64,000 nt of DNA, taken from the NCBI GenBank assembly GCA_964429235.1, contig CAYSAQ010000002.1, positions 230,952-294,951 of the forward strand. The letters run 5' to 3'. Under the pieces are notes generated by a model. That model did no database searches, was not told the DNA's origin, and saw nothing but the letters and a program-made list of their open reading frames with translations. The stretch's first letter is position 1. The number at the start of each line of letters is the position of its first letter. The DNA is from an uncultured Candidatus Marinamargulisbacteria bacterium. GTDB lineage: Bacteria; Margulisbacteria; Riflemargulisbacteria; GWF2-35-9; DYQY01. Made by a program: the position numbers and the translations under genes. Of the stretch, positions 26,133-32,512 are shown piece after piece.

Positions 26133-27755
26133 TTATTTGGTTTCTGGATATTCTAATGTTCTACAGTCAACTCCAGAATCAAACTCTAATATGGAGCTTT
26201 CTGCAGGAGCATATGAGAAGTTATCAACTGATCTCCCCGCAAAATAGATATTCTCAATGCCAAAATTATAGAACATACTTGCTACAATGTTGTTTAGTCG
26301 TGGGAAGTTGCTACCATTAGTGATAAAGAATGTCCCATTATTACCCGTGCCCATAACGCCATTCATAAAGTTTATTCTTTTTTGTTCAACGTTACCTTTT
26401 TTCTTGCAATAGAAATCACCAGGAATACGAATAGCCGTTAGTCCATATTCATTGAGTTTTTTATAAAGTTCTTTGTATTCTTCTTTATAATTTTTGTTCA
26501 TTCCTTGGGCATGTTTTAGAAAGGCAGAGTAGTAATTTTTTTCATTGGCAGATATGTCTTTGATTTTTAATAACTGTGTTAATAGTTTTACAGACATTTC
26601 CCAGTCGTGAACAAATATTTGGCCATTTAGGCCGGGTCTTAGATATGTGTCTATATGTAATCCTATTTGAGGGATAAAGAGTAGTTGCTCAGGATTTATG
26701 GAGAGATCATCTGCAATAAATTTGTGAGTTTTCCTATCAATGAATTCGTGTACTGCGGCGCTGCCTCCTTTGGCATGTTCTATTTTTATATCATTGTTGC
26801 TAAGATGTTTTTCTATGTATAGGCCCTCATTGATATCATAAGAAGTTTGGCCCATTATTACGATTTTGTCTTTGTTGTCATCCAATAGACTGAGAGTATT
26901 TCCTCCCTCAAAGTAGCTTCTTTTTTCTTTTATTATTCCAGTATCATATTTTAATTGGTCTTCTTCGAAGCGTCCCCGTATCGCTGACCCCATAGATCTT
27001 CGGTAGTCAGGGTGGGTTTTATCGCTAAAGCTAGAAGGTGTTACATAAATATACGTATTTTTAATACGATCATAAATGTCATCACTTGTTGGTGAAATGC
27101 TATTCCCATTATTTAGTACGATTTGTCCATCTTCAGGGTTTGTTATGTCTTTGGTTTGAACGATGTTTAGATGGAAGCCTTCTGCAGCAGCAATTTTCCC
27201 CAAATCATGATTAAATTCATCGGAATAATCGCCCTTGTTGTTATTTGTTACTGTTATTTTTTTTATTGTTCTTTCTGCAGATTCTGTAAATGGACCAGGT
27301 TTAGATTTTCTGAAATAGGGAGCCGTACTGGTCTTTTGTATTATGTCTTTCATGTTTATGCCTAAACCTTGAAGGTCTTCACTATTAAGAGCATTTTTCT
27401 TTTCCCATAGTACAGAAAGTTTGCTTGATTGTATTTTTGTTTCTAACAATTTTTTTGTTTTTGTTAACGTTGTTTTGTCAGATTGAGATATAGTTGCTTT
27501 TTTAAGTACGGAATTAATAACCAGTAAAGCTCTGAGTGCTTGTTCTGGTTTGAAATGTTTGTAATCGACTACAGAGTTATAACTTTTCTGAAAACCAGAA
27601 TCGTTTACCTTAATGGATATTCCCGCATTAGTTGTTTTAATAATAATGGTGTCGGTATATTTGCCAAATATGGTTGCCATAAGTTCAATTTTTTTATTTT
27701 CAGGCATTAAGCCTTGAGTGCTTGTGATATTTGTAGTTGTTTTAGTTGTTTGCAT
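26133..27755 (-). CDS. hypothetical protein with C-terminal agmatine deiminase / Porphyromonas-type peptidylarginine deiminase-like domain (tentative)
   Basis: 540 aa. C-terminal half carries FEGGNTLSLLDD, GLHIDTYLRPG and a near-C-terminal SGVDCRTLE, echoing the EGG, HxD...PG and catalytic Cys motifs of guanidino-group-modifying enzymes. N-terminus is T/S-rich with no signal peptide. Confidence 0.45.
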   Translation of the reverse strand: MQTTKTTTNITSTQGLMPENKKIELMATIFGKYTDTIIIKTTNAGISIKVNDSGFQKSYNSVVDYKHFKPEQALRALLVINSVLKKATISQSDKTTLTKTKKLLETKIQSSKLSVLWEKKNALNSEDLQGLGINMKDIIQKTSTAPYFRKSKPGPFTESAERTIKKITVTNNNKGDYSDEFNHDLGKIAAAEGFHLNIVQTKDITNPEDGQIVLNNGNSISPTSDDIYDRIKNTYIYVTPSSFSDKTHPDYRRSMGSAIRGRFEEDQLKYDTGIIKEKRSYFEGGNTLSLLDDNKDKIVIMGQTSYDINEGLYIEKHLSNNDIKIEHAKGGSAAVHEFIDRKTHKFIADDLSINPEQLLFIPQIGLHIDTYLRPGLNGQIFVHDWEMSVKLLTQLLKIKDISANEKNYYSAFLKHAQGMNKNYKEEYKELYKKLNEYGLTAIRIPGDFYCKKKGNVEQKRINFMNGVMGTGNNGTFFITNGSNFPRLNNIVASMFYNFGIENIYFAGRSVDNFSYAPAESSILEFDSGVDCRTLEYPETK

Positions 27756-27844
27756 TGTTTTCTCCTGTTAAGTTTTAAATATATCGAAGAAAGTAGCTGA
27801 GAATCCCTGTGTTTTTGTGAGATAGCACGTGTACAATATAAAAC

Positions 27845-29332
27845 ATGAAAATATCTTTTATATTCACACCTTTTTGTGCACCAACTTTTGTTCCTTATTA
27901 TCTTTGTGAGTTGATTGGTTATTTGTACGCAAGAGGTTTGGATGCTGACTGTTCTATTTTTGATTGGAATATCGAACAGTTTCAAAGAAGTTTGGGAGAT
28001 TTGGCTGAGGTAAAAAGAATAAAGTCCGGTGATTGGAGTAGTTATCTTGATGATAGCTATAGGGTCGCTCATCAGTGGCAAAGAATACAGGAGAAAACAG
28101 AGCTGGAGCTGGAAGCATATTTGAGAAGAGCAGGAAGTGTTCCATCAATTTTTGCCATGGTTGATGAAGAGATAGAATTTTCAGAGTTTGTTTGTTTGTC
28201 GCTTACATTTAACCACAGAGGTGGTGCATCACAGTTTTACCCAACAATTGCGTTAGCTAAATACATAAAAAATAAATGGCCAGAAAAGAAAATAATTCTT
28301 GGAGGAGCATATTTAAACCATATTGGCCGAGAGCAATTAATTAAAATATTTACCGAAATTGACTTTGTTTTATATAGAGAAAGTGAAGAAAGTTTGTTTT
28401 TATTACTTAACGAGACGGAAACAAACAAACAATTAATCCCTAATATGGTTTTCCGAGATAAGGGCAATATTATTACAACCGAACAAGTGGATAATGTTCA
28501 GCGGCAATTAGACTATGTGCCAATATTTGAGGGCATAGAGTTTGATAAATATTTGTCGCCAGAAACTAGTGTTGCTATTCAATATAAAAGAGGTTGTGAT
28601 TGGGGAAAATGCACTTTTTGTTCGCAGAATAATACATATTTCTTGAAACCAGAAGTTAATCAACAAGGCTTTACTAAAAGAGTAGAGGCTTTAAAGAAAG
28701 AAGGGGTTAAGTTTTTGTTTTTGGCAGATCAGATGATTTCACCCAAAGACCTAGCGTTTATTAATTCTGTTTTGGGCGATAGCTTTTTTTGGGCGTGTAT
28801 GATGATGCCGCAGAAGGGCATATCCGGGCAATTGCTAGAAGAAATGTATGCGTCTGGATGCCGGTGGATATGTTGGGGAATAGAATCCGGCAGTAAGGGT
28901 GTTTTGAAAAGCATGAATAAGCCAATGGATATAGAAGTAGCGAAGGCAAATATTATAAATGCTAGCCAATCAGGGATAAAGAATGTTCTTCTGATGATAG
29001 ATGGATTTCCCACAGAGACAGAAGAGGATAGAAAACAATCGTTAGATTTTTTAAAAGAAATGAAACCATATTATTATGATAATTCGCTTAGTCCTTTTCA
29101 TGTATGTCAGGGTTCTTATGTGCAAAATAACCCTGCAGAGTTTGGCATAGAGAAATTATCACGTGTTCCTATCTATAAAGATGATGAGAAAATATTATAT
29201 TCAGAACTGTACTCGTATTCCCCAATGAAAAACATTGAAGTTAATAATGAGGATAGGCGGACAATCCCTTATGCAGAACATATGCTGATTGCTTGCACTC
29301 TTTATAGTGATTTGGCAGTATTAGAACTATGA
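27845..29332 (+). CDS. B12-binding domain radical SAM protein
   Basis: 495 aa. N-terminal about 240 aa has a B12-binding-like layout, followed by the radical SAM cluster CDWGKCTFC. Confidence 0.75.
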   Translation: MKISFIFTPFCAPTFVPYYLCELIGYLYARGLDADCSIFDWNIEQFQRSLGDLAEVKRIKSGDWSSYLDDSYRVAHQWQRIQEKTELELEAYLRRAGSVPSIFAMVDEEIEFSEFVCLSLTFNHRGGASQFYPTIALAKYIKNKWPEKKIILGGAYLNHIGREQLIKIFTEIDFVLYRESEESLFLLLNETETNKQLIPNMVFRDKGNIITTEQVDNVQRQLDYVPIFEGIEFDKYLSPETSVAIQYKRGCDWGKCTFCSQNNTYFLKPEVNQQGFTKRVEALKKEGVKFLFLADQMISPKDLAFINSVLGDSFFWACMMMPQKGISGQLLEEMYASGCRWICWGIESGSKGVLKSMNKPMDIEVAKANIINASQSGIKNVLLMIDGFPTETEEDRKQSLDFLKEMKPYYYDNSLSPFHVCQGSYVQNNPAEFGIEKLSRVPIYKDDEKILYSELYSYSPMKNIEVNNEDRRTIPYAEHMLIACTLYSDLAVLEL

Positions 29333-31317: not shown

Positions 31318-31426
31318 CTATACAAGTTTCCTTCTATAAATCACGTTATCTAATATGGGTATAACTATGTTTAAAATCAGAGTATTTTGGGCACAATAAC
31401 TATATAAGATAAGGAGGTTGGATAAG

Positions 31427-32512
31427 ATGGCAGTAGGTATGAATACAAACACACTAACTTCGGCGAAGTTTAGAAAACCATCAGAAACCACTATCGAAAG
31501 TCTAGCGACGGTAAAGCCCGGGCCAGCAAATAAGGGGCTTGGAGCAACTAGTGCAGGAGCCGTATTCCTGCCAGTGCCTGGATTAAAAATTGCACAAACA
31601 ACTCCTCAAGAATTGCAAAAGCATGAAACAGTTACAAAAATAAATGCAGGAATTGAAGGTCTATGGGATGGCTCTAACGAAGTTGGGCCAAATGTAAAAG
31701 CATTTATAGCATCTAAAGTTGATGGATTTAAAGGAGCGGCTGGTCGTGAAGAGTGGCAGAGTTGGGGCAAAGAGTTTGTAGAAGCGATGGCTGCAGATTT
31801 AAAAATGTCTCCTGCTGAAGTTGAGGCGCTATCTCCTGCCGATATCTCTAAGTTGGTTGAAACGTTACAATCACAAATTAGCGCAACATGGCAGGTCAGT
31901 TTGTTTGGTCCTGATACATTGATGCATTTAGCTAAAAGGTTAGATAGTACACATGACGGTTTCTTAAATAATCTTAAAACAGACTTAAGCTCAGAAGCTG
32001 CAAAGACTTTTGATAGCAAATGGACAAAGATAACAAATTTTTATAAAGAGATAACAAAATTTGATAATCATTCAAAAGAGGATTTAGTAAAGTTTAATAA
32101 AGCAACTGTTCCATCTACAGATAAAGGTAGTCGATTAGCAAGCGTAGCTAGGCAAGTAGCCTCAGAAATGCCTGGTATTGGAAGATGTAAAAAGGGAGTT
32201 CGATTAGCTTTTGAAAAAGCAGGATTTGGAACAATTGCTGGATTGTCAGCGTATATGGCAGCCCCACAGTTAGCAAAAAGAGGTGGTTTTTCAGAGGCGT
32301 CTGTTAGTAGAAACCAATTGAAACAACTTCCAGCTGGAGCTGTTATTGTTTGGAATAAAGGAAGAATAGGCGGGGGCCGTTTGTCCTCTGCAGGGTTAGA
32401 GCACGGTCATATAGAAATATCATTAGGCAATGGTGGCGAGTTTGCATGCGATTATCAAGGAAGTGTTAATCCACAAAGAGCTCAAAGCTATAGAGTATTT
32501 ATTCCTAAATAA
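31427..32512 (+). CDS. hypothetical protein with C-terminal papain-fold (CHAP/NlpC-P60-like) amidase or peptidase domain (tentative)
   Basis: ATG at 31427 with aaggagg 9 nt upstream, preferred over the track's TTG at 31418. C-terminal GRCKKGVRLAFEKAGFG...AGAVIVWNKG...EHGHIEISLGNGG matches a Cys...His papain-like arrangement; N-terminus is S/T-rich with no signal peptide. Confidence 0.4.
   Translation: MAVGMNTNTLTSAKFRKPSETTIESLATVKPGPANKGLGATSAGAVFLPVPGLKIAQTTPQELQKHETVTKINAGIEGLWDGSNEVGPNVKAFIASKVDGFKGAAGREEWQSWGKEFVEAMAADLKMSPAEVEALSPADISKLVETLQSQISATWQVSLFGPDTLMHLAKRLDSTHDGFLNNLKTDLSSEAAKTFDSKWTKITNFYKEITKFDNHSKEDLVKFNKATVPSTDKGSRLASVARQVASEMPGIGRCKKGVRLAFEKAGFGTIAGLSAYMAAPQLAKRGGFSEASVSRNQLKQLPAGAVIVWNKGRIGGGRLSSAGLEHGHIEISLGNGGEFACDYQGSVNPQRAQSYRVFIPK

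Follow-up and report, generated by a model that had tools for sequence, protein, structure and literature searches.

Leaderless modular proteins with predicted wall-cutting domains in a variable chromosomal islet of a Candidatus Marinamargulisbacteria genome

Main finding

We analysed a stretch of 64,000 nucleotides (64 kb, hereafter the window) from an uncultured Candidatus Marinamargulisbacteria bacterium, in which five genes, here called A to E, lie between a gene for a NYN protein and a gene for flavin reductase (Table 1). Sequence comparison suggests that D and E are a pair of modular murein hydrolases which have a very rare N-terminal unit in common and carry no Sec or Tat signal. Across a narrow lineage this unit appears to be combined with different wall-cutting domains (lysozyme plus YkuD_2, M15). 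The islet that holds the two genes has a variable content at a fixed, vertically inherited chromosomal site. An earlier note on this DNA had taken A, D and E together for a possible effector locus. This effector reading is partly supported: D and E are predicted to be leaderless wall hydrolases close to toxins, and their islet is variable, but no immunity gene accompanies them, the window contains no secretion gene, and A is unrelated to the other two in architecture. We tentatively favour an antagonistic or bacteriolytic use of D and E after Sec-independent export, and offer the finding as a testable lead, not as the demonstration of an effector system.

The N-terminal unit shared by D and E

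Residues 55-161 of D are homologous to residues 58-176 of E (BLASTP E 8e-6), and an hmmsearch of the window detected the module in these two proteins only, the profile scoring 123 bits on E. When seven family members are aligned, F, K, W-x2-W, F, L, Q and G-P-x-T-L are invariant, and a five-sequence alignment of the module (A5) has 11 invariant columns. The first half carries the signature W-x2-W-(N/G)-x2-F. The PG_binding_1 signature D-G-x-(F/L)-G-P-x-T-x-x-A-L is also present, with G, P, T and L invariant; the Pfam match is weak (PG_binding_3 on the D module, E 0.018). The AlphaFold (AF2) model of E was built from a 3-sequence alignment and has a mean predicted local distance difference test score (pLDDT) of 64. 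In it, residues 62-212 are modelled with confidence (pLDDT 70-93) as a domain made of helices only, for which the structure search gave no significant neighbour. The common architecture that the earlier note had seen in all three proteins therefore holds for D and E but not for A, which has no similarity to E and possesses a folded N-terminal domain of its own.

The rarity of the module was assessed by scoring its profile (85 columns) against 1.84 billion representative proteins at a threshold of E <= 0.001; 17 of them matched. Matches limited to profile positions 49-83 correspond to canonical multi-repeat PG_binding_1 proteins that are fusions with amidases or with a glucosaminidase, and these cross-hit proteins carry PF01471 at Pfam E 1e-44 to 1e-134. 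Because this segment matches canonical PG_binding_1 proteins, the C-terminal half of the module can be said to resemble a PG_binding_1-type element. The full unit, with both halves, is found in about a dozen proteins, among them the D and E families, the M15 protein P0007, the 574-amino-acid (aa) protein P0020 (two copies) and a few long proteins of other bacteria (P0008, P0009, P0011, P0017 and P0019). Scans of JGI metagenome contigs with a D pattern and an E pattern gave no further loci, and a single related locus was found among 185,579 species genomes, in an entry titled 'Candidatus Riflemargulisbacteria bacterium isolate ELA174'. The module-bearing proteins P0009 (L014:8001-9908) and P0019 (L016:5459-8422), from outside Riflemargulisbacteria, are long, leaderless and without assigned function.

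Predicted catalytic domains

Direct sequence identification of A, D and E (Pfam, NCBIfam, PADLOC, PHROGs, and phmmer or hmmsearch against PDB) gave nothing above threshold. Residues 235-364 of E are modelled by AF2 as an alpha+beta domain of moderate confidence with a papain-like fold. C257 and H329/H331 are invariant in E and its orthologues P0005 (43% identity, named Candidatus Riflemargulisbacteria) and P0006 (44%), with the Cys at a helix start and the His on a beta strand. In a phmmer comparison the Cys and the GH of E align with those of the Lys2972 CHAP domain (E 0.5); E has no Pfam CHAP or NLPC_P60 match, the best among seven relatives being CHAP at E 0.13. Its best structural match is Tae3, which HMMER did not detect at the sequence level, and Foldseek on the E model returned nothing significant. 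The model points to an NlpC/P60 Cys-His peptide-cleaving domain, closest to Tae3, an effector of type VI secretion systems (T6SS).

The C-terminal domain of D is, at moderate strength, a putative T4-lysozyme/pesticin-like glycan-cleaving domain. The candidate Glu210 is followed about 15 residues on by T226-I-G-H-G, as in GH24 T4-lysozyme/pesticin, and E210, T226, I227, G228, G230 and LVFNRGT (317-323) are invariant in three D orthologues. We count as orthologues P0004 (42% identity), a 599-aa protein of the related locus L003, and P0013 (31%, E 4e-54). T4 lysozyme is the top PDB profile match of D (E 0.8), and residues 272-323 of D align in register with its residues 57-108, both with hhalign and with hmmsearch. 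Two of the seven aligned D/E-family proteins match Phage_lysozyme and Pesticin at E ~0.01; P0013 reaches 24.6 bits with Pesticin (E 2.7e-5, Pfam cutoff 25.8) and 21.1 bits with Phage_lysozyme (E 4e-4, cutoff 22.3). All orthologue scores stay under the gathering cutoffs, and D itself has no Pfam match in this family. Of the enzyme-like C-termini proposed earlier, the lysozyme-like one of D is thus moderately supported, that of E appears as a papain-like Cys-His domain, and the deiminase of A is a lead only.

A PG-binding domain followed by a catalytic one, without signal peptide, is also the order of modular endolysins of phages with Gram-negative hosts, and P0013 weakly matches PHROG endolysin families (E ~4e-4). 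D and E could accordingly be read as a domesticated lysis cassette of endolysin type, i.e. phage-derived lysins which wait in the cytoplasm and reach the wall on membrane breach. We consider such an origin improbable, as we do the purposes it would serve, programmed lysis releasing particles, DNA or vesicles, or abortive infection. No holin, spanin or phage gene lies nearby. No phage relatives were found by tblastn in the 50,697 phage records of INPHARED, IMG/VR gave no loci, and PHROGs gave none for D, E, P0004, P0005 and P0006, so that a phage origin of D and E has no support from these searches. Endolysins, moreover, have no disordered leaders of 60-80 aa, and up to five such genes are clustered in a single related locus (L011).

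N-terminal leaders and export

The absence of a Sec signal from A, D and E, claimed by the earlier note, was confirmed. The maximal 12-residue Kyte-Doolittle mean at the N-terminus is 0.80 for A, 0.66 for D and 0.30 for E, against 2-3.5 for membrane and secreted proteins of the window. By hydropathy there is no Sec-type h-region, and no twin-arginine (RR) motif is visible in the three sequences. A signal peptide hidden upstream is excluded because each open reading frame (ORF) is already the longest possible; the three ORFs agree with the coordinates first described. The fraction of serine, threonine and proline (S/T/P) in the first 60 aa is 0.43 for D (+4.2 standard deviations, SD), 0.28 for A (+2.0 SD) and 0.27 for E (+1.8 SD), relative to a window mean of 0.149 (SD 0.067, n=58 ORFs). 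The enrichment attributed to all three N-termini is thus strong in D, whereas A and E show it to a modest degree. One further real gene of the window, and no other, resembles D and E in N-terminal composition. It lies at 35828-36553, and its 241-aa product has an N-terminus rich in S/T (S/T/P fraction 0.28 over the first 60 aa), a hydrophobic C-terminal region, no signal peptide and no Pfam match.

In the AF2 model the leader of E (residues 1-61) has a pLDDT of 25-36 and no secondary structure. The leaders of the D and E families are similar in composition and hardly alignable between subfamilies; short conserved stretches (LFEKSxIPF, IEQTKPEVL) occur within the leaders of D orthologues only. 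What had been described as low-complexity N-terminal regions corresponds in D and E to a leader of 60-80 aa, disordered in the E model and presumed so in D, with a conserved structured domain behind it; the N-terminal region of A is folded too. The N-terminal regions are thus in part conserved structured domains, an outcome which the earlier note had itself counted against secretion signals. From ATG 31427, E begins with MAVGMNTNTL, and several family members begin alike (MAVALTNG, MAVIINSTQF). These MAV... N-termini loosely recall those of flagellins, in leaders that are unalignable across subfamilies.

Since glycan- and peptide-cleaving domains joined to a murein-binding module must meet polymeric murein, we think it most likely that D and E are exported, along a route that is independent of Sec and recognises the disordered leader. 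The lack of any export signal of a recognised type also fits proteins that stay inside the cell, where they would act on soluble muropeptides (recycling) or on non-murein substrates and use the module for protein interaction; the module-bearing P0009 and P0019 are also without signal peptides. We find a cytoplasmic role very doubtful. Lysozyme/SLT-type glycan-cleaving domains with PG_binding-type modules act on polymeric murein, and the set of bond specificities in the family (muramidase, endopeptidases, LD-transpeptidase-like, Amidase_3) fits demolition of the sacculus rather than recycling.

A variable islet at a fixed site

In four related genomes the flanks of the islet are perfectly syntenic, and the content between the NYN and flavin reductase genes differs. 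On the NYN side the order is aminotransferase, DUF8173, a 266-aa protein, an AI-2E transporter, a 236-aa protein and NYN; on the other side it is flavin reductase, ferritin and mfd. The islet of the window consists of A, radical SAM, kinase, D and E. That of L006 holds His_Phos_1, radical SAM, kinase, D and a SpoIIIAA/VirB11-like ATPase, and that of L013 His_Phos_1, D and the same type of ATPase as in L006; E is absent from both. In L003/L004 we find A, His_Phos_1, kinase, D with a YkuD_2 fusion at its C-terminus (599 aa), an E-type N-terminal unit joined to an M15/MepK-like peptidase (466 aa) and a 385-aa leaderless protein. Because the other genes differ between relatives, D is regarded as the anchor of the islet, around which they come and go. 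Two further loci bear on the E family. In L009 the E orthologue comes after a leaderless protein of 558 aa, which has an SLT domain as well as a PG_binding-like motif. In L011:1-7045 (Riflemargulisbacteria-like) five genes in succession encode wall-enzyme-like proteins without leaders. The first product has 574 aa and two modules and the second has 393 aa; they are followed by the E orthologue P0005, an M15 peptidase and, last, an Amidase_3 protein starting with MCETEGND.

Divergence is much faster in the islet genes than in the flanking ones (60-82% identity). Identity to the relatives is 76-77% for Mfd, 81% for NYN and 61-71% for ferritin, flavin reductase, transporter and aminotransferase; it falls to 31-42% for D, 31-37% for the kinase and 33% for the E-type module, and is 50-54% for A and 56% for the radical SAM protein. 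The earlier note had proposed to compare the GC content and codon usage of this block with those of core genes. The GC content at third codon positions (GC3) is 0.285 for A, 0.264 for D and 0.249 for E, ordinary for a window with a mean of 0.270. As GC3 is ordinary there is no compositional sign of recent transfer, and horizontal transfer, or an island defined by composition, was rejected.

Two kinds of additional islet genes deserve mention. In L006:11310-12581 and L013:9179-10345 the gene right after the D orthologue encodes a P-loop ATPase of 388-423 aa, distantly related to the secretion ATPases SpoIIIAA, VirB11, TrbB and FlaI (NCBIfam E 2e-10 to 1e-5, far below cutoffs). It holds the position of E and has no homologue in the window; it might be an export-related partner of D. 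The leaderless proteins of 385-393 aa in L003:4133-5290 and L011:1962-3143 have no significant family match. The L003 protein has an S/T/N-rich N-terminal half, the L011 protein an EF-hand-like opening segment; the motif PSFW(E/Q)RLFG is present in both and repeated in that of L003, and both have a C-terminal domain with conserved Cys and His. They may represent another papain-like hydrolase.

A locus that is fixed, syntenic, vertically inherited and of normal GC3 is what one would see if D and E were the cell's own autolysins. In such a self-directed role they would serve septum splitting, sacculus growth or, like FlgJ, the making of holes through which flagella or pili can pass, leave by a non-Sec route such as the flagellar gate, and be held on the producer's sacculus by the module. 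The lack of an immunity gene fits this role as well, and FlgJ is similar in having a muramidase behind a disordered N-terminus. Of the module proteins outside Riflemargulisbacteria, one adjoins a HAMP-SpoIIE phosphatase and a Fic protein, and the other adjoins ftsA-ftsZ and a FemAB-family gene, a setting in line with wall remodelling. Some Margulisbacteria have flagellar genes (PMC11607428, PMC7018530); the Riflemargulisbacteria genome paper makes no mention of flagella, pili, secretion or peptidoglycan. We nevertheless judge self-directed remodelling somewhat unlikely: D and E lie outside any flagellar or division cluster, their presence varies and the catalytic domain is swapped among close relatives (E, as noted above, is absent from L006 and L013), divergence is two-fold faster than that of the flanks, which is unusual for essential remodelling enzymes, and the closest relatives are toxins.

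Proposed use of D and E

The antagonistic reading is favoured because the catalytic domains of D and E are nearest to antibacterial toxins (pesticin-type lysozyme for D and its orthologues and Tae3 for E, and not housekeeping autolysins, are their nearest recognisable relatives) and because the repertoire of the relatives parallels T6SS effector classes (amidase/endopeptidase, muramidase and YkuD-type). In the proposed mechanism D and E would be exported from the cytoplasm without Sec, along a route by which their disordered leader is read, much as the signals of type III secretion system (T3SS)/flagellar and contractile-injection cargo are read. The module would then dock them on murein, and together they would cut glycan strands and peptide stems, most probably those of other cells' walls. 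In this way they could antagonise other cells, lyse neighbours or feed on the debris of walls. The proteins would be released outside the producer's outer membrane and not fired into the periplasm of siblings; with release of this kind, no immunity protein would be needed. The kinase and the radical SAM protein would be dispensable accessories which, speculatively, may modify or regulate the S/T-rich leaders.

A classical effector locus, in which A, D and E would be substrates of a T3SS, a type IV secretion system (T4SS) or a T6SS, with E a Tae3-type amidase effector and D a Tge-type muramidase effector, has its own arguments. Structurally E matches Tae3 best, and one D orthologue has its best Pfam match in the Pesticin-type lysozyme family. 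In L003 the D orthologue bears a YkuD-type domain reminiscent of Tlde1, a group of T6SS effectors. The exchange of toxin domains aimed at the wall behind one common N-terminal domain has a parallel in the MIX/WHIX polymorphic T6SS effectors (PMC12135965). Cognate immunity genes are, however, a defining trait of T6SS antibacterial effectors (PMC6099711, PMC12135965), and none is found downstream of either gene, here or in L003, L006, L011 and L013. More generally, no gene of the size or type of an immunity protein occurs in any version of the islet (window, L003, L006, L009, L011, L013). In the window there is no room for one, because the gaps between C and D and between D and E are about 100 bp and the stop of E abuts the next gene. 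No secretion-system gene was found in the 64 kb window, and no vgrG, hcp, PAAR or adaptor gene there or in the related loci. The module is distinct from WHIX, having ~85-150 aa compared with ~450 aa and no WHxxxH, and is almost confined to one lineage; A is unrelated to D and E in architecture. Classical T6SS delivery to exposed siblings is disfavoured by the missing immunity genes, and we rate the classical effector locus as a whole as quite improbable.

Several points weigh against the Sec-independent antagonism that we favour. The window, which holds housekeeping genes, offers no export machinery, and export of D and E is something that we infer throughout. The lack of an immunity gene argues against contact-dependent delivery to siblings. 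Vertical inheritance and normal composition are those expected of a housekeeping wall-remodelling locus, and the neighbours of the distant module proteins hint at a link of the module to cell wall or division in other bacteria, which fits a role in the producer's own wall.

A more far-reaching proposal, which we hold to be distinctly unlikely, is that of an undescribed Sec-independent route whose cargo is marked by the S/T/P leader and the W-x2-W/PG-binding-like module. It would serve an immunity-free, polymorphic murein-demolishing arsenal, with leaders that the adjacent kinase and radical SAM protein would modify and so license for export. With the same low likelihood, this arsenal would comprise a muramidase, a Tae3-like endopeptidase, an M15 LD-endopeptidase, a YkuD-type enzyme and an amidase.

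Neighbouring genes and features of the window

Table 1. Genes of the islet, the adjacent NYN gene, and features of D and E (window positions; residues of E are counted from TTG 31418, also where ATG 31427 is the preferred start)
Feature	Position	Strand	Description
NYN gene	25379-26074	-	231 aa
Gene A	26133-27755	-	540 aa; T-rich tip (1-20), folded beta/alpha N-domain (~15-110), linker, C-domain (~230-540)
Gene B, radical SAM	27845-29332	+	495 aa; class-B (B12-binding type); accessory islet gene
Gene C, RIO/Bud32-like small kinase	29329-30027	+	232 aa; 4 nt shared with B; immediately precedes D; accessory islet gene
Gene D, leaderless modular peptidoglycan hydrolase (predicted)	30127-31317	+	396 aa
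D leader, residues 1-83	30127-30375	+	S/T/P-rich, no hydrophobic segment, presumed disordered
D module, residues 84-165	30376-30621	+	W-x2-W-N...F, then PG_binding_1-like segment (VDGKLGPVTLIAL)
D catalytic domain, ~residues 200-396	30724-31314	+	T4-lysozyme/pesticin-like (putative)
D candidate catalytic Glu210	30754-30756	+	
D T226-I-G-x-G motif	from 30802	+	
Gene E	31418/31427-32512	+	364 / 361 aa; leader, helical module, predicted NlpC/P60 (Tae3-like) catalytic domain
E leader, residues 1-61	31418-31600	+	disordered
E helical domain, residues 62-212	31601-32053	+	includes shared module, residues 88-180, nt 31679-31957
E catalytic domain, residues 235-364	32120-32509	+	papain-like NlpC/P60/CHAP fold (predicted); Cys257 32186-32188, His331 32408-32410

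D is preceded by a ribosome-binding site (AAAGGGGA) 7 nt upstream of its ATG. For E, a Shine-Dalgarno sequence AAGGAGG lies at 31411-31417, too near the start given in the ORF list (TTG 31418), so that translation probably starts at ATG 31427. Downstream of E come the convergent flavin reductase and ferritin genes, the first of which the stop of E abuts, then mfd. The window has ~35% GC with a strong positive GC skew, and no RNA family (Rfam) and no tRNA (ARAGORN) was found in it. Its genes are of the housekeeping kind: polA, pyrH, frr, uppS, cdsA, dxr, dprA, an aminotransferase gene, a fatty-acid synthesis set, pta-ackA, lptFG and an AcrB/OEP pump. Mfd (33740-35815) has 691 aa here and 691-692 aa in all relatives, and looks like a lineage-wide short form; Mfd of model bacteria has roughly 1,150 aa. 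The short protein keeps the UvrB_inter, CarD_TRCF_RID, helicase and TRCF domains. At 14128-15213 the window also encodes a radical SAM protein of the spore-photoproduct-lyase type (Pfam SPL), in a lineage not known as spore-forming.

The NYN gene, which the earlier note had counted among the atypical genes of the cluster, was rejected as a part of it: it is a highly conserved resident of the flank (81%), present in all relatives whether or not A, E, radical SAM or kinase genes occur. B matches Pfam Radical_SAM at E 3.4e-13; its best NCBIfam matches are C-methyltransferases of ribosomally synthesized and post-translationally modified peptides (RiPP) and PhpK, all far below cutoff, and no precursor-peptide ORF was found near it. 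Its orthologue occurs in L006 and is absent in L003 and L013. C matches RIO1 (Pfam E 1.1e-5) and Bud32 (5e-4), with the motifs HGDLDHFGN (HGDLxxxN) and IDID intact and a hydrophobic C-terminus made of two hydrophobic helices. Orthologues of C lie upstream of D in L003 and L006 and are absent in L013. Because L013 has D without either gene, kinase and radical SAM are dispensable for D; as obligatory partners of D they were rejected, L003 having D without the radical SAM gene. In two relatives a SixA-sized His_Phos_1 phosphatase accompanies the kinase; this phosphatase is missing from the window.

Gene A is regarded as an independent neighbour unrelated to D and E; the direct comparison was with E and showed no similarity. 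A member of the homologue cluster of A is named Candidatus Riflemargulisbacteria by NCBI, as is P0005, and by these names and the ELA174 entry the organism of the window belongs to that group. Membership of A in one cluster with D and E was rejected: A is absent from L006 and L013, and is present without D or E in L005. The model of A has a mean pLDDT of 44, with a confident beta/alpha domain at residues ~15-110 (pLDDT 60-89) that weakly matches LPD3 (E 1.3e-4, below cutoff); only ~20 residues are T-rich. EGGN 283-286 (26907-), H367-I-D369-T (26655-) and C531 (26163-26165, in D-C-R-T) are invariant in three A orthologues. By comparison with the motifs of arginine deiminases, we take EGGN, H-I-D-T and a C-terminal Cys to stand in the order expected of the pentein superfamily. 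A has no profile-level match to pentein or deiminase families. Comparison by hhalign of its C-domain with arginine deiminase (ADI) of M. arginini and human DDAH1, using approximate query sequences, was not significant; the best local alignment with ADI pairs HIDT with HLDT. A deiminase (pentein) fold of the C-domain is suggested as a lead. Matches to the N-lobe of Src on residues 361-436 pair LRPGLNGQIF with the glycine-rich loop. A Src-family tyrosine kinase (profile E 0.02-1) was judged a chance match, which covers 76 residues only and shows no catalytic kinase motif by eye.

Meaning and comparison with known systems

The catalytic folds are familiar and their packaging is new: predicted leaderless wall hydrolases with a very rare N-terminal unit, interchangeable domains and no immunity partners, set in a fast-evolving islet of an uncultured phylum. 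If exported, D and E would be a sign of a secretion signal or route that has gone unrecognised and of a lifestyle of antagonism in Margulisbacteria, and would supply new lysin scaffolds, e.g. a Tae3-like domain with its own murein-targeting module. If self-directed, they would show a lineage that is a sibling of Cyanobacteria remodelling its wall without Sec-dependent autolysins. The undescribed delivery route, if true, would imply a bacteriolytic or predatory lifestyle of uncultured fermenters in Riflemargulisbacteria, within this same sibling lineage.

Modular endolysins of phages infecting Gram-negative hosts carry an N-terminal PG_binding_1 and a C-terminal catalytic domain. They are like D and E in domain order, in having no signal peptide and in their kinds of catalytic domain, whereas D and E have neither phage context nor phage homologues, bear an extra long disordered leader and lie in a chromosomal, syntenic, multi-gene locus. 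FlgJ, a leaderless murein hydrolase with a disordered N-terminal part that leaves through the type III (flagellar) gate, is similar in being leaderless and in this N-terminal part. D and E differ from it in lying outside a flagellar cluster, in their GH24-like and NlpC/P60 domains as opposed to GH73, and in a PG-binding module where FlgJ has a rod-binding domain.

The deiminases that act on protein arginine or agmatine are without the extra folded N-domain of A, which weakly matches LPD3. T4 lysozyme and pesticin (GH24-type; PF00959, PF16754) share with D the Glu...T-I-G-x-G and LVFNRGT-type motifs and weak profile matches. Both are without the leader and module of D, and the counterpart of Asp20 of T4 lysozyme is not conserved in the family (D in the window protein, T in P0004). 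Compared with Tae3 (type VI amidase effector family 3; Ralstonia pickettii Tae3-Tai3, PDB 4hz9), E has ~230 extra N-terminal residues (leader and helical/PG-binding-like module), and its gene has neither a Tai3-like immunity gene next to it nor T6SS genes in the vicinity. The MIX, FIX and WHIX classes of T6SS effectors (PMC12135965) resemble the D/E family in joining one conserved N-terminal unit to interchangeable, mostly peptidoglycan-targeting domains. The module of D and E is distinguished from them by its size (~85-150 aa), the lack of WHxxxH, its PG_binding_1-like half, its rarity (17 of 1.84e9 proteins) and a setting without immunity genes and without spike or tube genes nearby.

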